A stretch of DNA of 29,469 nucleotides from a virus (taxonomy: Duplodnaviria; Caudoviricetes), in the IMG/VR virus record IMGVR_UViG_3300006734_000027, positions 1 to 29,469 of that record; one strand, 5' to 3'. The translations under genes were made by a program, and so were the position numbers. Below are positions 930-29,123 of this stretch, piece by piece. Position 1 is the stretch's first letter. Each line of letters starts with the position of its first letter. The notes beneath the pieces are model-generated. The model was not told the DNA's origin, made no database searches, and was given only the letters and a program-made list of their open reading frames with translations.

Positions 930-1391
930 GTGCAACTCAGCGACTTCGATAAGAGTAGGGTCCGTTATCATCTGGGCTACTTCACGGTTTCTGTGCCGGC
1001 GGGTGACTTCGCGCGGCTTGAAGAAGCTATGAACACGGTCCCTGATTCGTACTTCTACGACAAGATCGTTATTCAGATCGGTCGCTGCGACACTGCCGAA
1101 AAGAAGACTGAAGTTGCTACTTCACCTTCTACCCGCCTTGAAAGCATTGCTGGTGACGTGGATCGTACGATCCGATCCAGCAATGCCAAAGAGGCACTCA
1201 AGGTTTGGGACGAGATTTATCTCTATGAAACCAACCGTTTAGCTAACATCCTTTACGTTCCCAACTACAAGGATCCGTTTCAAGCCAGATACCGTTACGA
1301 ACGTTCTGGTGCTGAGTTTATCCAGAGTCTTCCAGGACCTGCCGACGTTTCAGTGGGTACACGTCTGTACCTACACGAGCTTTGGCGCTAG
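930..1391 (+). CDS. Hypothetical phage protein, possibly virion-associated; target of an HNH insertion at its 3' end
   Basis: 153-aa ORF with a GTG start, TATAAT at 902-907; its last 12 residues recur in diverged form at 1950-1988. Confidence 0.8.
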   Translation: MQLSDFDKSRVRYHLGYFTVSVPAGDFARLEEAMNTVPDSYFYDKIVIQIGRCDTAEKKTEVATSPSTRLESIAGDVDRTIRSSNAKEALKVWDEIYLYETNRLANILYVPNYKDPFQARYRYERSGAEFIQSLPGPADVSVGTRLYLHELWR

Positions 1392-1946
1392 TATACAGTT
1401 GCTTTTTGCTGCTGGCATCATGGTTTCCCAATGGGATCCACTACCTTCTTTCGAAGAGCTAGATGCATATTACAAGTATGACCCAGAAACAGGGATTGTA
1501 ACACTCAAAAGGATGCGCTGCAATTCAGACGCCAAACGAGTAGGGAAGCCTGTCGGGAATTTAAGGAAACGCAATAAGCGTTTAGTGTGGACAATAACGC
1601 ATAAATACAAAGATCTATACTTAAGTCGTGTCATTTGGGTTTTGATGACACGAGAAGATCCCGGTGAGTTTATTGTTGAGTATAAAAACAGAAATGCTCA
1701 AGACAATACCTGGAACAATTTAAGACTTGCGACACGTCCACAGAATGCGGTTAATCAAATATTTGCAGGTTATTCACAAAGAAAAGACACAGGATTATAT
1801 AGAGTTAGGGTAACGCTTGAAGGTAAACGAATTACGGTTGGAAATTTTAAAACAGAAGAAGAAGCTAAAAAAGCAGCCTTGAATGCCAAAAAGCTCTTTT
1901 ACGGAGAGTTTGCGTGTCTTGATTTAGAATGTTCTTAATCAGGGAA
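1347..1946 (+). mobile_element. Free-standing homing endonuclease cassette 1: replacement 3' end of the upstream gene plus HNH-AP2 gene (boundaries approximate)
   Basis: Upstream gene ends SVGTRLYLHELWR*; after the HNH stop the sequence reads AVGSRLYLHEVWR*; the cassette is visibly AT-richer than its flanks. Confidence 0.75.
1420..1938 (+). CDS. HNH homing endonuclease with a C-terminal AP2-like DNA-binding domain, possibly inactive
   Basis: YDPETG N-terminal motif, VEYKNRNAQDNTWNNLRLAT..QN HNH-like core, YRVRVTLEGKRITVGNFKTEEEA...YGEFA AP2-like tail; ATG at 1420 preferred to the CTG at 1309. Confidence 0.85.
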   Translation: MVSQWDPLPSFEELDAYYKYDPETGIVTLKRMRCNSDAKRVGKPVGNLRKRNKRLVWTITHKYKDLYLSRVIWVLMTREDPGEFIVEYKNRNAQDNTWNNLRLATRPQNAVNQIFAGYSQRKDTGLYRVRVTLEGKRITVGNFKTEEEAKKAALNAKKLFYGEFACLDLECS

Positions 1947-1988
1947 GCCGTTGGTTCTCGTCTTTATTTGCATGAGGTTTGGAGGTAA
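1947..1988 (+). pseudogene. Displaced original 3' end of gene 930..1391
   Basis: gcc gtt ggt tct cgt ctt tat ttg cat gag gtt tgg agg taa = AVGSRLYLHEVWR*; 10 of the last 12 residues match the expressed C-terminus. Confidence 0.85.
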
Positions 1989-6294: not shown

Positions 6295-6429
6295 GGAGCT
6301 GGCAGTAGCTACTTATACACCGTACACAAAAGAAATCATCTGTCAAGATTTGTCAGGATATCTTTATCTCTTTAGTTTGTCCGGTAACTGTTTGGAGAAT
6401 TTAGAATGAATTAACGGCAATTGAAAAGC

Positions 6430-6768
6430 ATGTTTTGCAACGAGCACGAGCCCCTCGCCCTGCTAGTTGAATTAACACCAAAACTTGCCAAGAAACGTTT
6501 TAGAGAGAGTATATACCAAGCCTGGGACCACAAGTGTGGCTATTGCGGAGATGTCGCCACAAGTCTTGATCACATCGTACCAAGGTTTAAATCTGGTTCT
6601 TCTAATCGGCATAATCTTCTTCCCTGTTGCAGGCGCTGTAACGCCCATAAAGGATCAGAGGATATGAGGACCTGGTTTGAAAAACAAGATTTCTTTTCTA
6701 CCAAAACTCTTGATAGGATTGAAGCCTGGATCAAACAAGAGTCTGTTTTTATTTTTGGTGAGTGCTGA
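6430..6768 (+). CDS. HNH endonuclease (McrA/HNH_5-like)
   Basis: CGYCG...SLDHIVPRFKSGSS..HNLLPCCRRCNAHKG; ATG at 6430; its stop overlaps the next start (TGATG). Confidence 0.9.
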   Translation: MFCNEHEPLALLVELTPKLAKKRFRESIYQAWDHKCGYCGDVATSLDHIVPRFKSGSSNRHNLLPCCRRCNAHKGSEDMRTWFEKQDFFSTKTLDRIEAWIKQESVFIFGEC

Positions 6769-9942: not shown

Positions 9943-9962
9943 ACTTGGGTTGCTTAAACCCA

Positions 9963-10388
9963 ATGGCCAACGCTAACAGTCGCTTTGTTTCTGTTAAATG
10001 TGAAATATGTCAGTGTGAAGGAAGCATACGCATTGATCAATACACTCGGAGAGAGGGTATTTGGAAATGTCGCTCATGTAATAAAAGAGGACAGATTCCA
10101 GTAAATAAAGGAAAAGGAGTAAAAAATAATCCTGACTTGTTGAGAACACGGTCTAGTTATTACAAAGCAAAATATCGCTGCAGAACAGGTCATAGAGGTT
10201 ACTACGTCAATGTTGAATTTCGTTTTACGTCTCTTCAACAACTGATTGATGAAATTGGCGTGAGACCGGAAGGCACAACGTTAGATCGCATTGACAACTT
10301 GGGACATTATGAGCCAGGTAATGTTCGCTGGGCAACACCCAAAGAACAAGCCAATAACAGGCGTGCCAAAAATTCAGTTTCTCGCTAA
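9963..10388 (+). CDS. HNH-type homing endonuclease with an N-terminal zinc ribbon
   Basis: CEIC...CRSC, then [34 protein letters not shown]; AT-rich. Confidence 0.85.
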
Positions 10389-10574: not shown

Positions 10575-11240
10575 ATGTCGGATCTTTCGCACGCTGTTAA
10601 CCTCATTCGTAAATACGAAGGGTTTAGCGAGAAAGCATACCCAGATCCGCACTCAGGCGGTGAGCCATACACCATCGGGTTTGGAACTCAGTTTTATCCC
10701 GATGGTTCTCCCGTCAAGCAAGGCCAGTGTTGTAGCCAAGAGAAAGCACTGGAATATTTGTTCCATGAAGTCAATGTCATCGATGGGCAGCTGATCAAAC
10801 TCAACCTTGGTTTGGATGACTACATGAGACAAGCTCTCGTGTCCTTCATCCATTCCATCGGTTGGGAACCTTTCCTCTACAGCCGCATCATTGATTGCTT
10901 AGAAATTGAAGACTTTGCTGGCGCCACAGAAGAAATCGGCCGTTGGATATTTGATCAAGAACACAAGGTCATTGGCGGCCTCTTAGACCGGCGCAGGGAA
11001 GAGATGAATCTGTTCCTCCAGGAGGTTGACGCTAATCCCTGGGCTTCAACAGAGATTTTGCTTACAGCCTTCCGTAACTACACTGCTGCTCCCCACGAGG
11101 TACGTGCAATTCGTGCCCTGGAAGAAAGCATTAGTCCTTACATCCTCTCGGAGTTTGCCAATACCTTCAAGATAGACGAGGACCCATTCCCTGATTTCCA
11201 ACTAGATGATGTAGATACCGAAGAGGAACGCTACACTTAA
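10575..11240 (+). CDS. Phage lysozyme (GH24) with a C-terminal extension
   Basis: IRKYEG..EKAYPDP..G..PYTIGFG, ALVSF..SIG, GLLDRRREE..LF motifs. Confidence 0.9.
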   Translation: MSDLSHAVNLIRKYEGFSEKAYPDPHSGGEPYTIGFGTQFYPDGSPVKQGQCCSQEKALEYLFHEVNVIDGQLIKLNLGLDDYMRQALVSFIHSIGWEPFLYSRIIDCLEIEDFAGATEEIGRWIFDQEHKVIGGLLDRRREEMNLFLQEVDANPWASTEILLTAFRNYTAAPHEVRAIRALEESISPYILSEFANTFKIDEDPFPDFQLDDVDTEEERYT

Positions 11241-11258
11241 AATAGTTGCAATACGTAC

Positions 11259-11558
11259 ATGCAGAGCGGAATGGAGCGTTCAAGCGAGCCAAGAGAGTTT
11301 GAGCTCCCCCTGGAACTGCAATTCGCTATGCGTAAAGCTGAGTTGCAATCAGAGGAGATGACCTGGGAGGAGCTGCGCTTTGCTCTTCTTAATCTCTACC
11401 ACCAACGCATGATGGAATGGTACGCCATCAAAGACATCATGGCGTCAGAGAACATCGAGATCGACTGGGATCATCCAACCGATCTCGAATTAGCTGAACT
11501 TGCAGCCGCCTGTGGTTATGACGACGACGATGATGACGATGAACTTCAGCCGTTCTGA
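11259..11558 (+). CDS. nblA: NblA-like phycobilisome degradation protein with an acidic tail
   Basis: LPLELQFAMRKAELQSEEMTWEELRFALLNLYHQRMM matches the NblA pattern LsLEQqF..R......Ms.Eq....L..Ly.QmM; alternative start at 11271. Confidence 0.6.
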   Translation: MQSGMERSSEPREFELPLELQFAMRKAELQSEEMTWEELRFALLNLYHQRMMEWYAIKDIMASENIEIDWDHPTDLELAELAAACGYDDDDDDDELQPF

Positions 11559-11644
11559 AGTATTTTATCCAGTTGAATAAGACGATCCAGGTACCACCTT
11601 GCCTTCTTCAGTGATTCTGTCCCGCCTTTATGGCGCTCACGCCA
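11546..11644 (-). pseudogene. Displaced original 3' end of the DUF3310 gene
   Basis: Reads WRERHKGGTESLKKARWYLDRLIQLDKILQNG*, a canonical DUF3310 C-terminus, starting 2 nt after the HNH stop. Confidence 0.9.
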
Positions 11645-12224
11645 CTTTAGGTGGCCCAGTTTTCTCCATTGCAGATCCTAGAAATGTGTTGAAACGATAC
11701 GCCATACATCTTGGAAAGCTCAAGAAGTTTAAAGCCCTTTTTTCGTTTATTCCTAATTTCTGAAACTTGTACAGAATTTAGCTTTGCAGTTCCATGGTTT
11801 TCACCACTTGTCTGTGTACCATGTTCTTTTTTGCGCCTGATATTTTCAAGAGGCGTTTCGTAACAAAGGTTTGAAAGGCGGTTGTCTGCATTGTTTCCAT
11901 TTAGATGGGAAACGTGTAACCCAACTGGACATTCTCCAGCAAAGGCAGCCATTACCTCTCTGTGTATATATACTCCTTTACTTTTCTTGTTTTTGTAGCT
12001 AAGTACTAAAACCTTGTATCCAGTTGGAGTCGTCGAGCCTTTTAGGATTCTGTTTGTTTTTTTATTTTTTACCCTGCCTAAGTCGGAGATTTCATACCGA
12101 GAATCTGATGGCAGGGGTTTCCAGGTTTCCTTGAATGTTGTTAGTACGTTTGTATTAGCCTCTTTAAATACCACTCGCATTTTTGCAGATCCTCTTTCGG
12201 ATTCCCTTTAAGATTACAACGCCA
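11645..12224 (-). mobile_element. Free-standing homing endonuclease cassette 2: replacement DUF3310 3' end plus NUMOD4-HNH gene
   Basis: Bounded by a 6-bp direct repeat TGGCGT (Trp-Arg; plus-strand ACGCCA at 11639-11644 and 12219-12224); AT-richer than its flanks. Confidence 0.85.
11647..12180 (-). CDS. NUMOD4-HNH homing endonuclease with a C-terminal HTH
   Basis: ETWKPLP...YEISDLGRVKN (NUMOD4); YIHREV..AF, VSHLNGNNADNRLSNL (HNH); GENHGTAKL...LSKMYGVSFQHISRI (HTH). Confidence 0.92.
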   Translation of the reverse strand: MRVVFKEANTNVLTTFKETWKPLPSDSRYEISDLGRVKNKKTNRILKGSTTPTGYKVLVLSYKNKKSKGVYIHREVMAAFAGECPVGLHVSHLNGNNADNRLSNLCYETPLENIRRKKEHGTQTSGENHGTAKLNSVQVSEIRNKRKKGFKLLELSKMYGVSFQHISRICNGENWAT

Positions 12225-12614
12225 AAGATACTTGGCGCAATTGCCTTTTAGGTAACCACGAAACTCCTCAAGAGTTTGCTGAGCCTCAATTGCCTCGATG
12301 CATTCGATTGAACCGCTATCCGTATAGTGTGATGGATGATTGACCTTGTCTTCCTGAATCACAGGAGGCTCTTCCTTGGTGGCCCAGGGGACTGGGCACA
12401 CACCACCAGGGCATTCACTTAGCGCATCAAGCCCCGTCGTTTTGCTGAAAGCATCAGTTCCTCCTCGTCCGGCTCCTCCAGTTCCAGGACCAGTGCTTTC
12501 GGTTTCGGAGAGGCTCCCATTGCTAAACCCTCCTCCATCGACGGGATTAAACCAGTCGTTCCGGGCCGTGTTCCCTCGAGATTCAATGGATTCCTTTCGA
12601 GTCCCTGCTCGCAT
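12141..12614 (-). CDS. DUF3310 domain protein; start uncertain
   Basis: DKVNHPSHY...IECIEAI...GYLKGN.AKYLWR...KG...EDLQK.EWYL.RL. Confidence 0.85.
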   Translation of the reverse strand: MRAGTRKESIESRGNTARNDWFNPVDGGGFSNGSLSETESTGPGTGGAGRGGTDAFSKTTGLDALSECPGGVCPVPWATKEEPPVIQEDKVNHPSHYTDSGSIECIEAIEAQQTLEEFRGYLKGNCAKYLWRCNLKGNPKEDLQKCEWYLKRLIQTY

Positions 12615-12763
12615 GCGACTAAACCCCTGTTGTACATGTCATACAATGGTACGTCATTTTCTTCGTTAGCGAGAGGTTGGCCGAAATCTTCTTCACTAAG
12701 ACAACGACACTTCAGCTCATCTTGAACGAAAGAATCTAAAAATCCGGCAGCGGAATGCATCAC
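12419..12763 (-). CDS. Hypothetical acidic protein
   Basis: 114-aa ORF with protein-like composition; divergent from the gene at 12800; overlaps the DUF3310 ORF by up to 196 nt. Confidence 0.65.
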   Translation of the reverse strand: MMHSAAGFLDSFVQDELKCRCLSEEDFGQPLANEENDVPLYDMYNRGLVACEQGLERNPLNLEGTRPGTTGLIPSMEEGLAMGASPKPKALVLELEEPDEEELMLSAKRRGLMR

Positions 12764-12799
12764 GGCGGTTAGTTGATTTACTGCTTCTACAATGATAAG

Positions 12800-13171
12800 A
12801 TGGCTAACCGTTTTAGACCTACTTACGATCCAGGTGTGGATTCTGGTACCTCTGGAGCCGAGGTAACAGATCTCAATCCGGAACAGGCGTACGACACAGA
12901 CCTTCGTCGTTTATCAGAAGACGCCCGTGGATCGGCTGAGTCCGTAAACAACGATCAGAACCGTGTCGCCAAATTCATGCGGGCCGCTAAATCTGCTGGT
13001 GCCTACAAGCAACGCGCAAGTATCGACGAACCAATGGTCCGTGGAAGAACACCAAGAGTTCGCGCAGAAATCAGTGGTGTAGAACTGCCAAGCACAGGGG
13101 ACTCAGGTGGGCGCACCGGTGCTGTTGGCTACGCCCGTAAACCTGCTTCCCAATTTGGCAAAGGGTTTTAG
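12800..13171 (+). CDS. Hypothetical protein
   Basis: MANRFRPTYDPG...; TACAAT at 12788-12793 just upstream; converges on dcd. Confidence 0.7.
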   Translation: MANRFRPTYDPGVDSGTSGAEVTDLNPEQAYDTDLRRLSEDARGSAESVNNDQNRVAKFMRAAKSAGAYKQRASIDEPMVRGRTPRVRAEISGVELPSTGDSGGRTGAVGYARKPASQFGKGF

Positions 13172-20377: not shown

Positions 20378-21291
20378 GGTCTGTTGGTCAGAGGAACAAA
20401 GATCTCAGGGAAGCGTTCGGTTTCTTGATGTTCTCTTGTCCATGCATTCTGCCACTCAGACAATGAGTGGTCATGGATTGTGTCGTAATACGCATCATCC
20501 CCAACTTCAAGAATAATCTTGAAGTCATCAAAACTACCAGCTGAAATACGTTCACCGATCAGCCATGTGGATCCATCCGAAACAGTTACGGTGACACCTG
20601 AGTTGATTGTGCAACTAGTCTCTGTAAAAGCATTGGCGCCAACCGGTATAAGGACATTGGTTGCAACGGGACTGATAATGCTTGGTGCATCGATTTCAGT
20701 CTCTTGTAAACAAACTGAACCATCAAGATCTTCTAGTTCGAAGAACGCTTCTGTAATAGGAAACTCAATGACAACGCCTACGTTGTACTCAAGTGTCTCA
20801 TTGCGAGTTGATGAGACGCAAATGAGATAGCTTCCTGCTACTAGTGGATAGTATCGATCATCTCCTCTGTCTAACCTGAGACGCTCAAAGGAGTTGTACA
20901 AGTCAGATTGTTTGCTCATCACCGTATCTAAATACGGGATGTACACTTCTCCATCGGATGTTGTGTAGATGGAGTCAGCATCAAAAACCGAGTTGCCCTG
21001 GATCGGAACCTTATTAAGATCGTATGCGGAGATCTGAATGTACTGAGGACGCGGCGGTCCCTTGGTCAAAATAATCCAGCCGGGAGAAGCAAGATTAATT
21101 TGGAACCAGTGATTAAATGTACCCCCGCCAATGCCACCGTTTGAATTAAGACTTGTATCTGCACGGCCAATTGGTTTCCATTGGGCACCAAGAGTTCCAT
21201 GCAGATACCGCAGAGCAGTTTGGTTGAACGTACCAATAACTAAGGGGTTATTCTGAGTTCTTTGTGGTTGACTTAGTGAACTCCTGGGCAT
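20374..21291 (-). CDS. Hypothetical protein (beta-rich, acidic)
   Basis: ORF of about 305 aa from MPRSSLSQ; could extend to 21324. Confidence 0.75.
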   Translation of the reverse strand: MPRSSLSQPQRTQNNPLVIGTFNQTALRYLHGTLGAQWKPIGRADTSLNSNGGIGGGTFNHWFQINLASPGWIILTKGPPRPQYIQISAYDLNKVPIQGNSVFDADSIYTTSDGEVYIPYLDTVMSKQSDLYNSFERLRLDRGDDRYYPLVAGSYLICVSSTRNETLEYNVGVVIEFPITEAFFELEDLDGSVCLQETEIDAPSIISPVATNVLIPVGANAFTETSCTINSGVTVTVSDGSTWLIGERISAGSFDDFKIILEVGDDAYYDTIHDHSLSEWQNAWTREHQETERFPEIFVPLTNRP

Positions 21292-21997
21292 ATGAACCGT
21301 AATACAACTCCTGCTCTTCATCATAATCGGGGGTATTTTTGTTCACTAATGGGTGTTGAATAGTGCTTTTGTACTGCCGCTCTAGGAGTGGTTCAGGTTT
21401 GTTCTTCAGGAAGTTTTGCGCTTGCTGCATTGCTTTCTGTGGATCAAACTCTGGTTCAAACGGATGGATGGCCTGAGGTGGAAACATCCTGTTGAAACTT
21501 GAGACTAAATGGAGAGGATTGAGGCAGTGCTTGTTTTTACATGTGCGTGTCACAAATAGCTTGCCCACATCACCCCAGGCACACTGGTAGATGATCTTGT
21601 GGATCGTGACATTACCGTTGTACTTCTCGTTAAACGCCATGGTGTAAGAGGGAAATCGCGTACGTTTGCCACCGAGCCATGGGACTTCCCAACACTCATC
21701 CCATTCACCAACAGGGATTTGATTCCAGATCTCCAGCATCCGTGACTTGTAGTTCTTGTTGAGATAGTTAACGTCAAACCCACAGTTATTGCTCTGGATC
21801 TTACGCACACACTCATAACACCAGTGGTCCTCTAGATGCCGGATACGATGACCATGCTGGCAGTAGAACCCACGATAGTAGCCGTGCGTCCTGAGTTCTT
21901 CATCTGGCATCTCATGGATCCCGTCAATAACGGGAATCAATGTTAGGGTTTTTGCCAGGTTCAGTAGCTTTGTCGCGTGTTTGATGGAATTTGCCAC
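21248..21997 (-). CDS. His-Me finger / HNH-like zinc-binding protein, degenerate
   Basis: CQHGH...CYEC zinc motif; DECWE...TIHKIIYQ..WG.....VTRTCKNKHCLNPLHL. Confidence 0.75.
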   Translation of the reverse strand: MANSIKHATKLLNLAKTLTLIPVIDGIHEMPDEELRTHGYYRGFYCQHGHRIRHLEDHWCYECVRKIQSNNCGFDVNYLNKNYKSRMLEIWNQIPVGEWDECWEVPWLGGKRTRFPSYTMAFNEKYNGNVTIHKIIYQCAWGDVGKLFVTRTCKNKHCLNPLHLVSSFNRMFPPQAIHPFEPEFDPQKAMQQAQNFLKNKPEPLLERQYKSTIQHPLVNKNTPDYDEEQELYYGSYAQEFTKSTTKNSE

Positions 21998-22000
21998 GGA

Positions 22001-22426
22001 TCAAGCCTCAGGATTGCGTTTGCGTTGGACGAAGTCGTAGATCATTTCTGGATCTCGGTACACAAGATCGCCTTCTTCGTTACGAATGCGTCGTCTGTAC
22101 TTGGGTGCAGGGCGCGTCCTGCGTCGATAAAGCTTTAGCTCCAGGCGGTTGTCACGTTCCCTGTTGCGCTTGTCGTGAAGCACATCGGCATCACCTGGAT
22201 CCTCACCAGTACGTAAGTAGTACACGACACGGTGCACTGGATAGCGAATCCCAAGTAGCGACACAACATAGAAACGTGAGCTGCCATAGCGCTTCCCCGC
22301 CACTTCACCAACATCGTGGTAGCGATCAGAAGTCTTCCACCTGAGGCCACAAGGATGGTCAGGAGTGAGTTCCAGGTTCTCCTCTAGCCATGAGAGGGGT
22401 GGCAACGGTTGGTAGTTACGCGGCAT
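22001..22426 (-). CDS. HNH-like protein
   Basis: MPRNYQPLPPL..L, GLRWK, GEVAG, YPVHRVVYYLRTGEDPG..DVLH.....DNR; ATG at 22426 preferred because the longer ORF runs through the inverted repeat. Confidence 0.75.
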   Translation of the reverse strand: MPRNYQPLPPLSWLEENLELTPDHPCGLRWKTSDRYHDVGEVAGKRYGSSRFYVVSLLGIRYPVHRVVYYLRTGEDPGDADVLHDKRNRERDNRLELKLYRRRTRPAPKYRRRIRNEEGDLVYRDPEMIYDFVQRKRNPEA

Positions 22427-22514
22427 AGAGCCAGAGATGACTGAACAAGGCAAGCATAGGCCAATAAGAACGTAATAGCAAGGTGTATGCAGGTAGTCCG
22501 TCAGATCTGACGCT

Positions 22515-22708
22515 GAAGTAGCTGCACATACCTTTTTATATTTCTTATATAAGTCAAAGCTCACTTTTGCAAAAGTGGCACAAAATTTCTCTTGTATCTC
22601 AGTTTTGTCTCACATGAGATTGAGAGCTCTTCTCAATAAGTGTGCCACTTTGGACAAAGTGAGCTTCGGCTTATACTAGGTATATAAGTCTGTATGTGCA
22701 GGTAGTTT
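22515..22708. repeat. Large imperfect inverted repeat with nested palindromes in a non-coding region
   Basis: Arms 22548-22582 / 22641-22675 and outer arms CTGCACATAC 22522-22531 / GTATGTGCAG 22692-22701, each 16 nt from the inner arms. Confidence 0.85.
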
Positions 22709-28476: not shown

Positions 28477-28723
28477 TGTACCAAGGCGCACGCAGTTCCA
28501 TGGCCCCACCTAGCTTTTGGGATTCACCAGGCTGGAGCACAGAGTCAATCGGATACTCACGATAGATTGGTTTGTGTTGTTCTTCCCGTTCTATCTCAGA
28601 CTCAATCCGATTCTCAAGCTCTATCATATCGAGACGAGCTTTGAGCTTAGCCTCAAACCAGATGCGTTTCCACCACTTGATAGCAGCGTTAAGCGTGTCT
28701 TTCAAGATATTGTTTAGCTGCAT
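28409..28723 (-). CDS. Hypothetical protein; start lies within the 3' end of the EndoVII gene
   Basis: ...LNAAIKWWKRIWFEAKLKARLDMIELE...GGAMELRAPW; candidate ATGs at 28723 and 28744. Confidence 0.65.
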   Translation of the reverse strand: MQLNNILKDTLNAAIKWWKRIWFEAKLKARLDMIELENRIESEIEREEQHKPIYREYPIDSVLQPGESQKLGGAMELRAPWYNDEIQPQRQDGVQEASRMADRK

Positions 28724-29123
28724 CAAAAAGAAGCGGATCTTCATTTAACAATCCTATTGCACAGTTACATTTTCCACATAGCAAAGACCGCACTTTGTCA
28801 GTGTTATGACAATGATCAACTACAAATTTTTTTCCTACTCCACCAGGATCAGTTGTTTTACAGATAGCGCACATGCCGTTTTGTTCAGCAAACATTTGTT
28901 CATATTGTTTTAACGTGATTCCATAAAGTCTTTTGAGAGTTGTATTTCTTCTTGAGCGTTTTGCTTTTTCAGGATTGTTTTTAATCCATTCTTTGTTTTT
29001 TGCTCTTCTGCATGAATTGCACCAAGATGTTAAGCCTGTTTTATTTCTTGGATCTTTGTGAAACTCTTCGGGAGGTTTTGTTTCATTACATTTAGGACAT
29101 TTTTTGGAAAAATATTTAGTCAT
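28689..29123 (-). CDS. Endonuclease VII-family (putative homing) endonuclease
   Basis: KKCPKC..TKP.EEF, WCNSC, YGIT..QY..M..EQNG.CAIC, VDHCH.T.KVR.LLC..CN.AIG; strongly AT-rich. Confidence 0.92.
   Translation of the reverse strand: MTKYFSKKCPKCNETKPPEEFHKDPRNKTGLTSWCNSCRRAKNKEWIKNNPEKAKRSRRNTTLKRLYGITLKQYEQMFAEQNGMCAICKTTDPGGVGKKFVVDHCHNTDKVRSLLCGKCNCAIGLLNEDPLLFDAAKQYLERHA

Follow-up and report, generated by a model that had tools for sequence, protein, structure and literature searches.

The window (i.e., the whole 29,469-nt stretch of DNA analyzed here) is a virus record syntenic with Synechococcus phage S-EIVl. A DUF3310 gene lies on its minus strand (12141-12614; start codon uncertain) and encodes a T7 gp1.7-like protein annotated as a nucleotide kinase (Pfam PF11753, E = 1e-17; PHROG nucleotide-kinase families, E values down to 1e-28; residues 69-153, 52% to phiA1122 protein 1.7), for which a PDB search returned no meaningful match. 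The ORF ends in WRCNLKGNPKEDLQKCEWYLKRLIQTY*, and its last 27 codons plus the stop codon (12141-12224, minus strand) form a cassette-borne replacement C-terminus (referred to here as the replacement tail). On the same strand follows the gene of an I-HmuI-like, 177-aa NUMOD4-HNH-HTH endonuclease (11647-12180; Pfam, PDB, and Foldseek), whose likely start codon (12178-12180) is created where Lys and Cys codons adjoin in the replacement tail; the two ORFs share a 40-nt overlap. At the downstream junction, a 2-nt spacer (AG; 11645-11646) separates the HNH stop codon (TAA) from a second DUF3310 tail that has no start codon (i.e., the orphan; 11546-11644, minus strand; frame WRERHKGGTESLKKARWYLDRLIQLDKILQNG*). 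This orphan contains the last 13 nt of a convergent nblA-like gene (11259-11558, plus strand; Pfam NblA, E = 2.6e-4, below the cutoff), which matches the S-EIVl gene in the syntenic position at 63%. Both tails align to DUF3310 profile positions 41 to 60 (E = 0.003 and 0.009, below the cutoff). The hexamer TGGCGT occurs at 12219-12224 and at 11639-11644, 580 nt apart, and the match is not extendable. The overlap, the spacer, the start-less second tail, and the 580-nt spacing described in a first-pass annotation were all reproduced base for base.

The G+C content is 0.38 in the replacement tail, 0.38 to 0.40 in the tail plus HNH, and 0.40 in the whole 580 nt, compared with 0.53 upstream and 0.485 in the orphan. 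The upstream junction is spanned with 0 to 1 differences by contigs of public runs belonging to three studies, and one such contig spans the downstream junction (0 differences); the arrangement is therefore not an assembly artifact. The RNA data consist of one 203-nt contig (11966-12168) from one metatranscriptome run, which may be DNA. A hairpin over the HNH stop codon (11641-11655) was not visible by eye in L163-L167 and was taken as chance.

Another cassette built in the same way lies at 930-1988 (plus strand) of the window and consists of a gene (930-1391), an HNH-AP2 gene (ATG at 1420 to 1938), and a start-less copy of the last 13 codons of the first gene (1947-1988; 10/13 residues identical), all on the plus strand. 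GGAGG is present in the orphan of this second cassette, and 2 nt separate the end of this orphan from the following ATG; the gap is also 2 nt in S-EIVl, where the allele is empty. HNH or endonuclease VII genes occur at five further places in the window (6421-6768, 9945-10388, 21248-21997, 22001-22564, and 28689-29123), and no orphan tail was found behind any of these five.

Native and replacement tails of DUF3310

Among the best 80 DUF3310 loci from a search with the gene of the window (four of them classed by identical coordinates), one was the window contig, 60 had a single native-type tail, 18 carried extra DNA between the DUF3310 and nblA-like genes, and one was a chimera. Together with the loci of a second search, for which a native allele was the query, the pool comprised 168 loci, 164 of which were parsed into 96 distinct ones (68 without an insert, 16 with an insert, and 12 unclassified); the second search is biased toward native alleles, and the counts do not represent frequencies. 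The 68 insert-free loci overlap the nblA-like gene by 13 nt (57 loci) or 4 nt (11 loci), in agreement with the earlier proposal that the overlap seen at the orphan is the ancestral junction. As was also proposed, relatives without the HNH end in a WRE[R/K]HKGG-type tail placed directly against the nblA-like gene. The spacing from WR to WY is 14 residues in 67 of the 68 insert-free loci and 15 residues in the window's translated tail.

The first 78 nt of the window orphan are identical (78/78) to the empty allele L025, whereas the replacement tail of the window reaches at best 64% nucleotide identity to the 67 empty alleles compared. In seven of eight occupied loci, the orphan is 88 to 100% identical to some empty allele (L010, 76%), the best match differing per locus, while the replacement tails of occupied loci reach 62 to 69% at best. 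The replacement tail is under purifying selection in the DUF3310 frame, the overlap included (pN, 0.07 to 0.17 vs 0.32 to 0.53 in the HNH frame; noisy values from 12 to 14 codons). Judged from these sequence comparisons, the orphan is the native DUF3310 end and the translated tail is foreign. The DUF3310 gene of the window is a hybrid of a host 5' part and a cassette tail. The 78/78 match and the presence of the replacement tail in HNH relatives bear out the first-pass claim that the element inserts into a coding sequence and supplies a diverged 3' end.

S-EIVl has a replacement-like tail without an HNH, and nearly all of 120 pattern matches to the replacement tail type are HNH-free genes of other phages; thus, the foreign tail that the nuclease picked up represents ordinary variation of DUF3310. 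The replacement tails of nuclease families A and B (see below) score higher on a profile of HNH-free K-C tails than on native tails, a comparison that is partly circular, since the HNH-free set was chosen by a pattern derived from the replacement tail. The possibility that the Lys-Cys start codon was an invention of the cassette was rejected, because K-C tails are also a normal feature of DUF3310 genes without an HNH in other phages. The S-EIVl gene itself (L480, 2528-2767) is of another DUF3310 subtype, with a cassette-like tail, no HNH, and a 4-nt overlap with the nblA-like gene.

TGGCGT was correctly placed at both junctions in the first-pass annotation, but its standing as a special repeat was not upheld: the hexamer occurs 23 times in the window, and its T, G, G, C, and G are 99 to 100% conserved codon positions in the 68 distinct insert-free loci. 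A target-site duplication was rejected for the same reasons and because the hexamers differ in L163, where the junctions read TGGCGC and CAGCGT and the orphan begins with Q rather than W. Deletion of the 580 nt between the hexamers does keep the reading frame, as had been stated, but it would not restore the ancestral allele: donor sequence begins no less than 28 nt upstream, and excision would therefore yield a hybrid rather than an empty allele.

The L163 locus is occupied by a 72% orthologue of the window HNH. Its upstream flank is identical at 792/800 nt to both of the empty loci L024 and L031, and its downstream flank is identical at 1181/1200 nt to L024 and at 1167/1200 nt to L031; dense differences begin 28 nt before the W codon. 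These flanks make L163 near-isogenic with the empty pair and indicate a recent insertion with short co-conversion. Patchy presence, matching empty alleles, and co-converted flanks, which together serve as the criterion for a homing endonuclease, are all found. The cassettes of L334 and P0182 have 185/195 aa in common, while the N terminus and the tail (15/29) differ, with the switch at WR on either side. The empty-allele sequence diverges at 11645 in four runs, all of which contain the HNH as well. Mismatches of the downstream junction to the empty consensus amount to 7 to 13 of 36 nt in occupied alleles and 2 to 14 in empty alleles, ranges that overlap.

The endonuclease, its relatives, and other forms of the locus

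The HNH protein carries the Pfam domains NUMOD4, HNH_3, and HTH_3. Its sole PDB sequence hit was 1u3e (E = 5.6e-8), and I-HmuI (1u3e) was likewise the only Foldseek match of its model with an E value under 0.001; the first 15 residues of the model are unstructured. Residues H92 and N113, which are invariant in 26 sequences, align with the general-base His and the metal-binding Asn of I-HmuI. The position of I-HmuI D74 is an invariant Ser (S91) in the window HNH and its relatives (the catalytic residues of I-HmuI are D74, H75, and N96, numbered as in PMC12724721). Four full orthologues point to purifying selection on the HNH (pN, 0.16 to 0.22 vs pS, 0.62 to 0.84). In all 11 loci compared, the HNH starts with an ATG or GTG 44 nt downstream of the W codon; a Shine-Dalgarno sequence before this start is not conserved. 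At the other end, the arrangement of HNH stop codon, 2 nt, and W-codon position is identical in L163, L164, L165, L167, L002, and L334.

Close HNH relatives were taken as distinct, non-self sequences with at least 47% identity over 100 or more residues (n = 12). Eleven of them lie directly behind DUF3310 (the contig of the twelfth begins inside the HNH), compared with 1 of 143 weaker matches. An orphan is present in 7/12 close relatives, starting within a few nucleotides of the W/S codon, in hosts with 48 to 68% G+C content, and was not detected in the other 5/12. The fixed orphan start extends to GC-rich, unrelated phages (L085, L168, and L334), and HNH homologues do travel with a replacement tail, a point that the first-pass annotation had raised for checking. 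No HNH relative above 39% was found in isolate phages. A profile search of representatives was dominated by multi-repeat HNH proteins without context and was not used. In a tree of 29 HNHs, rebuilt with closer outgroups after a first tree with long branches, 14 of the 15 DUF3310-linked sequences fall on one branch (82/93); a single origin of all 15 was not rejected (p-AU, 0.43), which is no proof of one.

A sister form of the cassette was found in L334 (1260-2066), L335 (918-2144; the same cassette is also present in L489-L503), L485 (927-1820), and L487 (933-1856). In these loci, the replacement tail is stop-less, and the DUF3310 frame remains open through the out-of-frame HNH into the native tail, with 0 stops vs 5.6 to 8.8 expected from synonymous shuffles (P <= 0.0006; the P values are optimistic, as controls tend to fall below shuffle means and the four loci were noticed after the fact). 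None of 24 unlinked HNHs is stop-free, and the DUF3310 frame across the window HNH has 8 stops vs 8.2 expected. The HNH frames of the read-through loci are 46 to 62% identical, and their open frames are 14 to 33% identical. The native stop codon overlaps the start of a co-directional ORF in all four read-through loci, while the next gene is convergent in 7/7 stop-plus-orphan loci (clear for five; a judgment of ORF length for L085 and L168). Translational coupling is put forward as the cause of the read-through form as a hypothesis only, because the loci of both layouts cover just two or three independent branches. A single 233-aa record (P0184) passes from the open DUF3310 frame into the HTH end of the HNH, possibly by deletion or error.

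Besides the NUMOD4-HNH type (family A), two other nuclease types were found at DUF3310: a zinc-finger-type HNH (family B; L004, L010, and L018), with an orphan that starts at KYVWR, and an HNH-AP2 (family C), with an orphan that starts at (Q)WYL. The combination of DUF3310, replacement tail, and orphan was found in 7/7 family C loci at 74% or above and in 0/17 weaker loci, and one family C orphan is identical (45/45) to an empty allele. At the sequence level, then, three nuclease families occupy the same phage gene, each with its own junction. Deletion remnants exist for all three (L002/L003 for family A, L005/L006 for B, and L055 for C). L002/L003 have both tails and no HNH, a constellation that the first-pass annotation had held to contradict its reading; however, the HNH start and stop are retained in frame in these loci, which are deletion scars rather than refutations. 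Family B has orphan-less forms (L007-L009), and the orphan is lost or shortened in L005-L009 and L055. L045 is a tail chimera, which matches the L002 tail at 50/57 nt and then continues into a native-type end. Relatives of family B are also located upstream of DUF3310 (L298-L300), so the target cannot be deduced from adjacency. A family-B-like HNH without an orphan overlaps the kinase gene in Klebsiella phages KP1-1 and Ou2. Acinetobacter phage LLY (L482, 1585-2011) retains no more than the two termini of such an HNH behind its kinase gene, a deleted form of the HNH that is intact in KP1-1 and Ou2. By eye, an N-terminal segment (PF..GD.R.DG-like) is apparently common to L004, L038/L053/L054, L011, and L481, where it precedes different nuclease domains (those of family B HNHs, of a gene resembling endonuclease VII, and of an HNH on the reverse strand next to DUF3310).

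Proposed homing and its alternatives

We interpret the 580-nt insert at the W-R codons of DUF3310 as a cassette of a replacement gene end and an HNH that likely spread by homing (probability, approximately 0.85). From the fixed junction, the I-HmuI-like nuclease is predicted to act on DUF3310 alleles that lack the cassette, making a nick or cut close to the conserved KYxWR codons. Repair from an occupied phage would then copy the cassette in, with the DUF3310 5' part and the orphan as arms, as the near-isogenic pair suggests; the upstream crossover would lie within the 5' part common to both alleles (in the cleanest case, 28 nt ahead of the W codon) and the downstream crossover in the stranded native tail. 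Because the cassette opens with an in-frame foreign C-terminus bearing its own stop codon, the host gene would remain translatable and splicing would be unnecessary, in keeping with the selection on the replacement tail. The orphan probably acts as the downstream homology arm, refreshed from recipients, and would persist for this reason and because it carries the last 13 nt of the nblA-like gene. The later decay seen in the remnants and the chimera is ascribed to loss of the HNH through microhomology deletion or to recombination of one tail with the other. The cassette probably originated from a free-standing HNH that lay behind a foreign DUF3310 gene and moved into a non-syntenic DUF3310 gene. 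It is plausible that the occupied allele is immune to cleavage; I-HmuI nicks intron-plus DNA as well, according to PMC3017599.

Alternatively, the HNH could be a free-standing gene that is inactive or has another target, in a block that moves by ordinary recombination at conserved codons, with an accidental orphan retained solely for its overlap with the nblA-like gene. This explanation would suit the Ser that replaces I-HmuI D74, the WR codons as the best-conserved stretch and a natural crossover point, the 5/12 relatives without an orphan, and the rarity of the cassette in the viral collection. It is nevertheless unlikely, given that distant hosts share the codon position of the downstream junction although there is no homology on the cassette side, that three nuclease families each retain their own junction, that the HNH is under purifying selection, and that the linkage to DUF3310 persists across hosts with different neighbors.

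A much smaller chance is given to removal of the insert from RNA (by a minimal or trans-acting intron) or to ribosome bypass between the W-R pairs, with translation of the native tail. The codons at the two junctions match, the excision length is in frame, and the orphans have few lesions; however, the replacement tail has its own stop codon and is under purifying selection, the L163 orphan starts with Q, and the remnants have other insert lengths. No Rfam match was found at E values up to 1 (11200-12800), and the HNH is flanked by only 44 nt (coding) before and 2 nt after, in line with the earlier statement that there is no room for a ribozyme core. A group I intron was rejected, since a ribozyme core is absent around the nuclease ORF. 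In bypass of the T4 gene 60 type, the codons match, a stop codon immediately follows the take-off codon, and about 50 nt are skipped; it was rejected for this locus, where the matched codons are 580 nt apart and the first is followed by 27 sense codons. Just as improbable is an adaptive switch, in which a spare C-terminus is swapped in by recombination to vary DUF3310 (e.g., against host defense), as the L045 chimera of the two tails might suggest, for this is the one chimera among 68 insert-free loci, the orphan is lost or shortened in several loci, there is no recombinase or repeat array, and the same layout occurs at an unrelated gene in the window.

Known systems and meaning of the cassette

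The homing mechanism inferred in the first-pass annotation is supported, but a prior example, which that annotation did not name, exists in fungal mitochondria. Mobile ORFs there make gene hybrids in Allomyces macrogynus (atp6) and Glomus sp. (atp6, atp9, cox2, and nad3), according to PMC3630166, which also cites 1994 work that demonstrated the mobility of the Allomyces element biochemically. As described there, the fungal ORFs share with our cassette the order of an in-frame foreign C-terminus, an endonuclease ORF, and a displaced native C-terminus, and the identities of displaced vs inserted tails to relatives are comparable (91 to 98% vs 64 to 81% in fungi; 88 to 100% vs 62 to 69% here). 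The fungal nucleases are mitochondrial LAGLIDADG and GIY-YIG enzymes, whereas those described here are phage HNHs (NUMOD4-HNH-HTH and HNH-AP2), and in the cassette the replacement tail itself supplies the start codon of the nuclease, unlike in the fungal ORFs of that account. The cassette works like the fungal mitochondrial elements but is not a member of them.

Among phage nucleases, I-HmuI and I-BasI (PDB 1u3e; PMC3017599) have the domain order, fold, and His and Asn positions of the window HNH; they are encoded in group I introns, whereas the window HNH is intron-less and has a Ser at the Asp74 position and a C-terminal HTH. In the consulted portions of the literature, the T4 seg/mob genes (PMC2988022), the Skunavirus HNHs (PMC12724721), and the HEG islands (PMC10055350) resemble the cassette in having no intron or intein and a start that overlaps the upstream gene, and gene fragments beside HEGs are regarded as possible recombination substrates (PMC10055350). 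Free-standing phage HEGs are also described there as splitting genes (mobE in Aeh1 nrdA and mobA in T4 gene 60). An in-frame replacement C-terminus with a stranded native end is a cassette feature that these portions do not describe for the T4, Skunavirus, or ICP1 HEGs. The ShiLan-type hidden HNH is, like the cassette, a splicing-free insertion in a coding sequence and a precedent for the read-through form; its open host frame has counterparts in L334, L335, L485, and L487, whereas the window cassette has stops before the HNH body and, unlike ShiLan, duplicates the gene end. HomeR, as outlined in PMC7968924, places a nuclease element at a cut close to the 3' end of a gene with a re-coded rescue tail of 22 to 27 codons; the likeness is an analogy only, since HomeR is synthetic, CRISPR-based, and built in Drosophila, whereas the cassette is a natural phage element. 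A phage replacement tail with a stranded native end was not found in the literature searched, a weak absence given its limited coverage. The layout is known in fungal mitochondria; the phage cassette with an HNH would be a new setting for it.

At somewhat less than even odds, we further suggest that phages hold a general class of splicing-free home-and-rescue elements, in which one DUF3310-targeting HNH lineage shows three forms set by the downstream context: a stop codon plus a stranded tail (next gene convergent, 7/7 loci), an open frame (native stop coupled to the next start, 4/4 lineages), and no orphan (HNH abutting the next gene). If so, home-and-rescue elements would swap nucleotide-kinase C-termini between unrelated phages. 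The natural series is unusually complete, comprising a near-isogenic pair, three nuclease families, scars, and a chimera, and it predicts the cut site within a few bases. For annotation, it carries the warning that a short gene end without a start codon, when located behind an HNH gene, is a homing footprint. The cassette represents a way for a homing nuclease to enter the coding sequence of a dense phage genome without an intron or intein, and a route for domain-end shuffling among unrelated phages.
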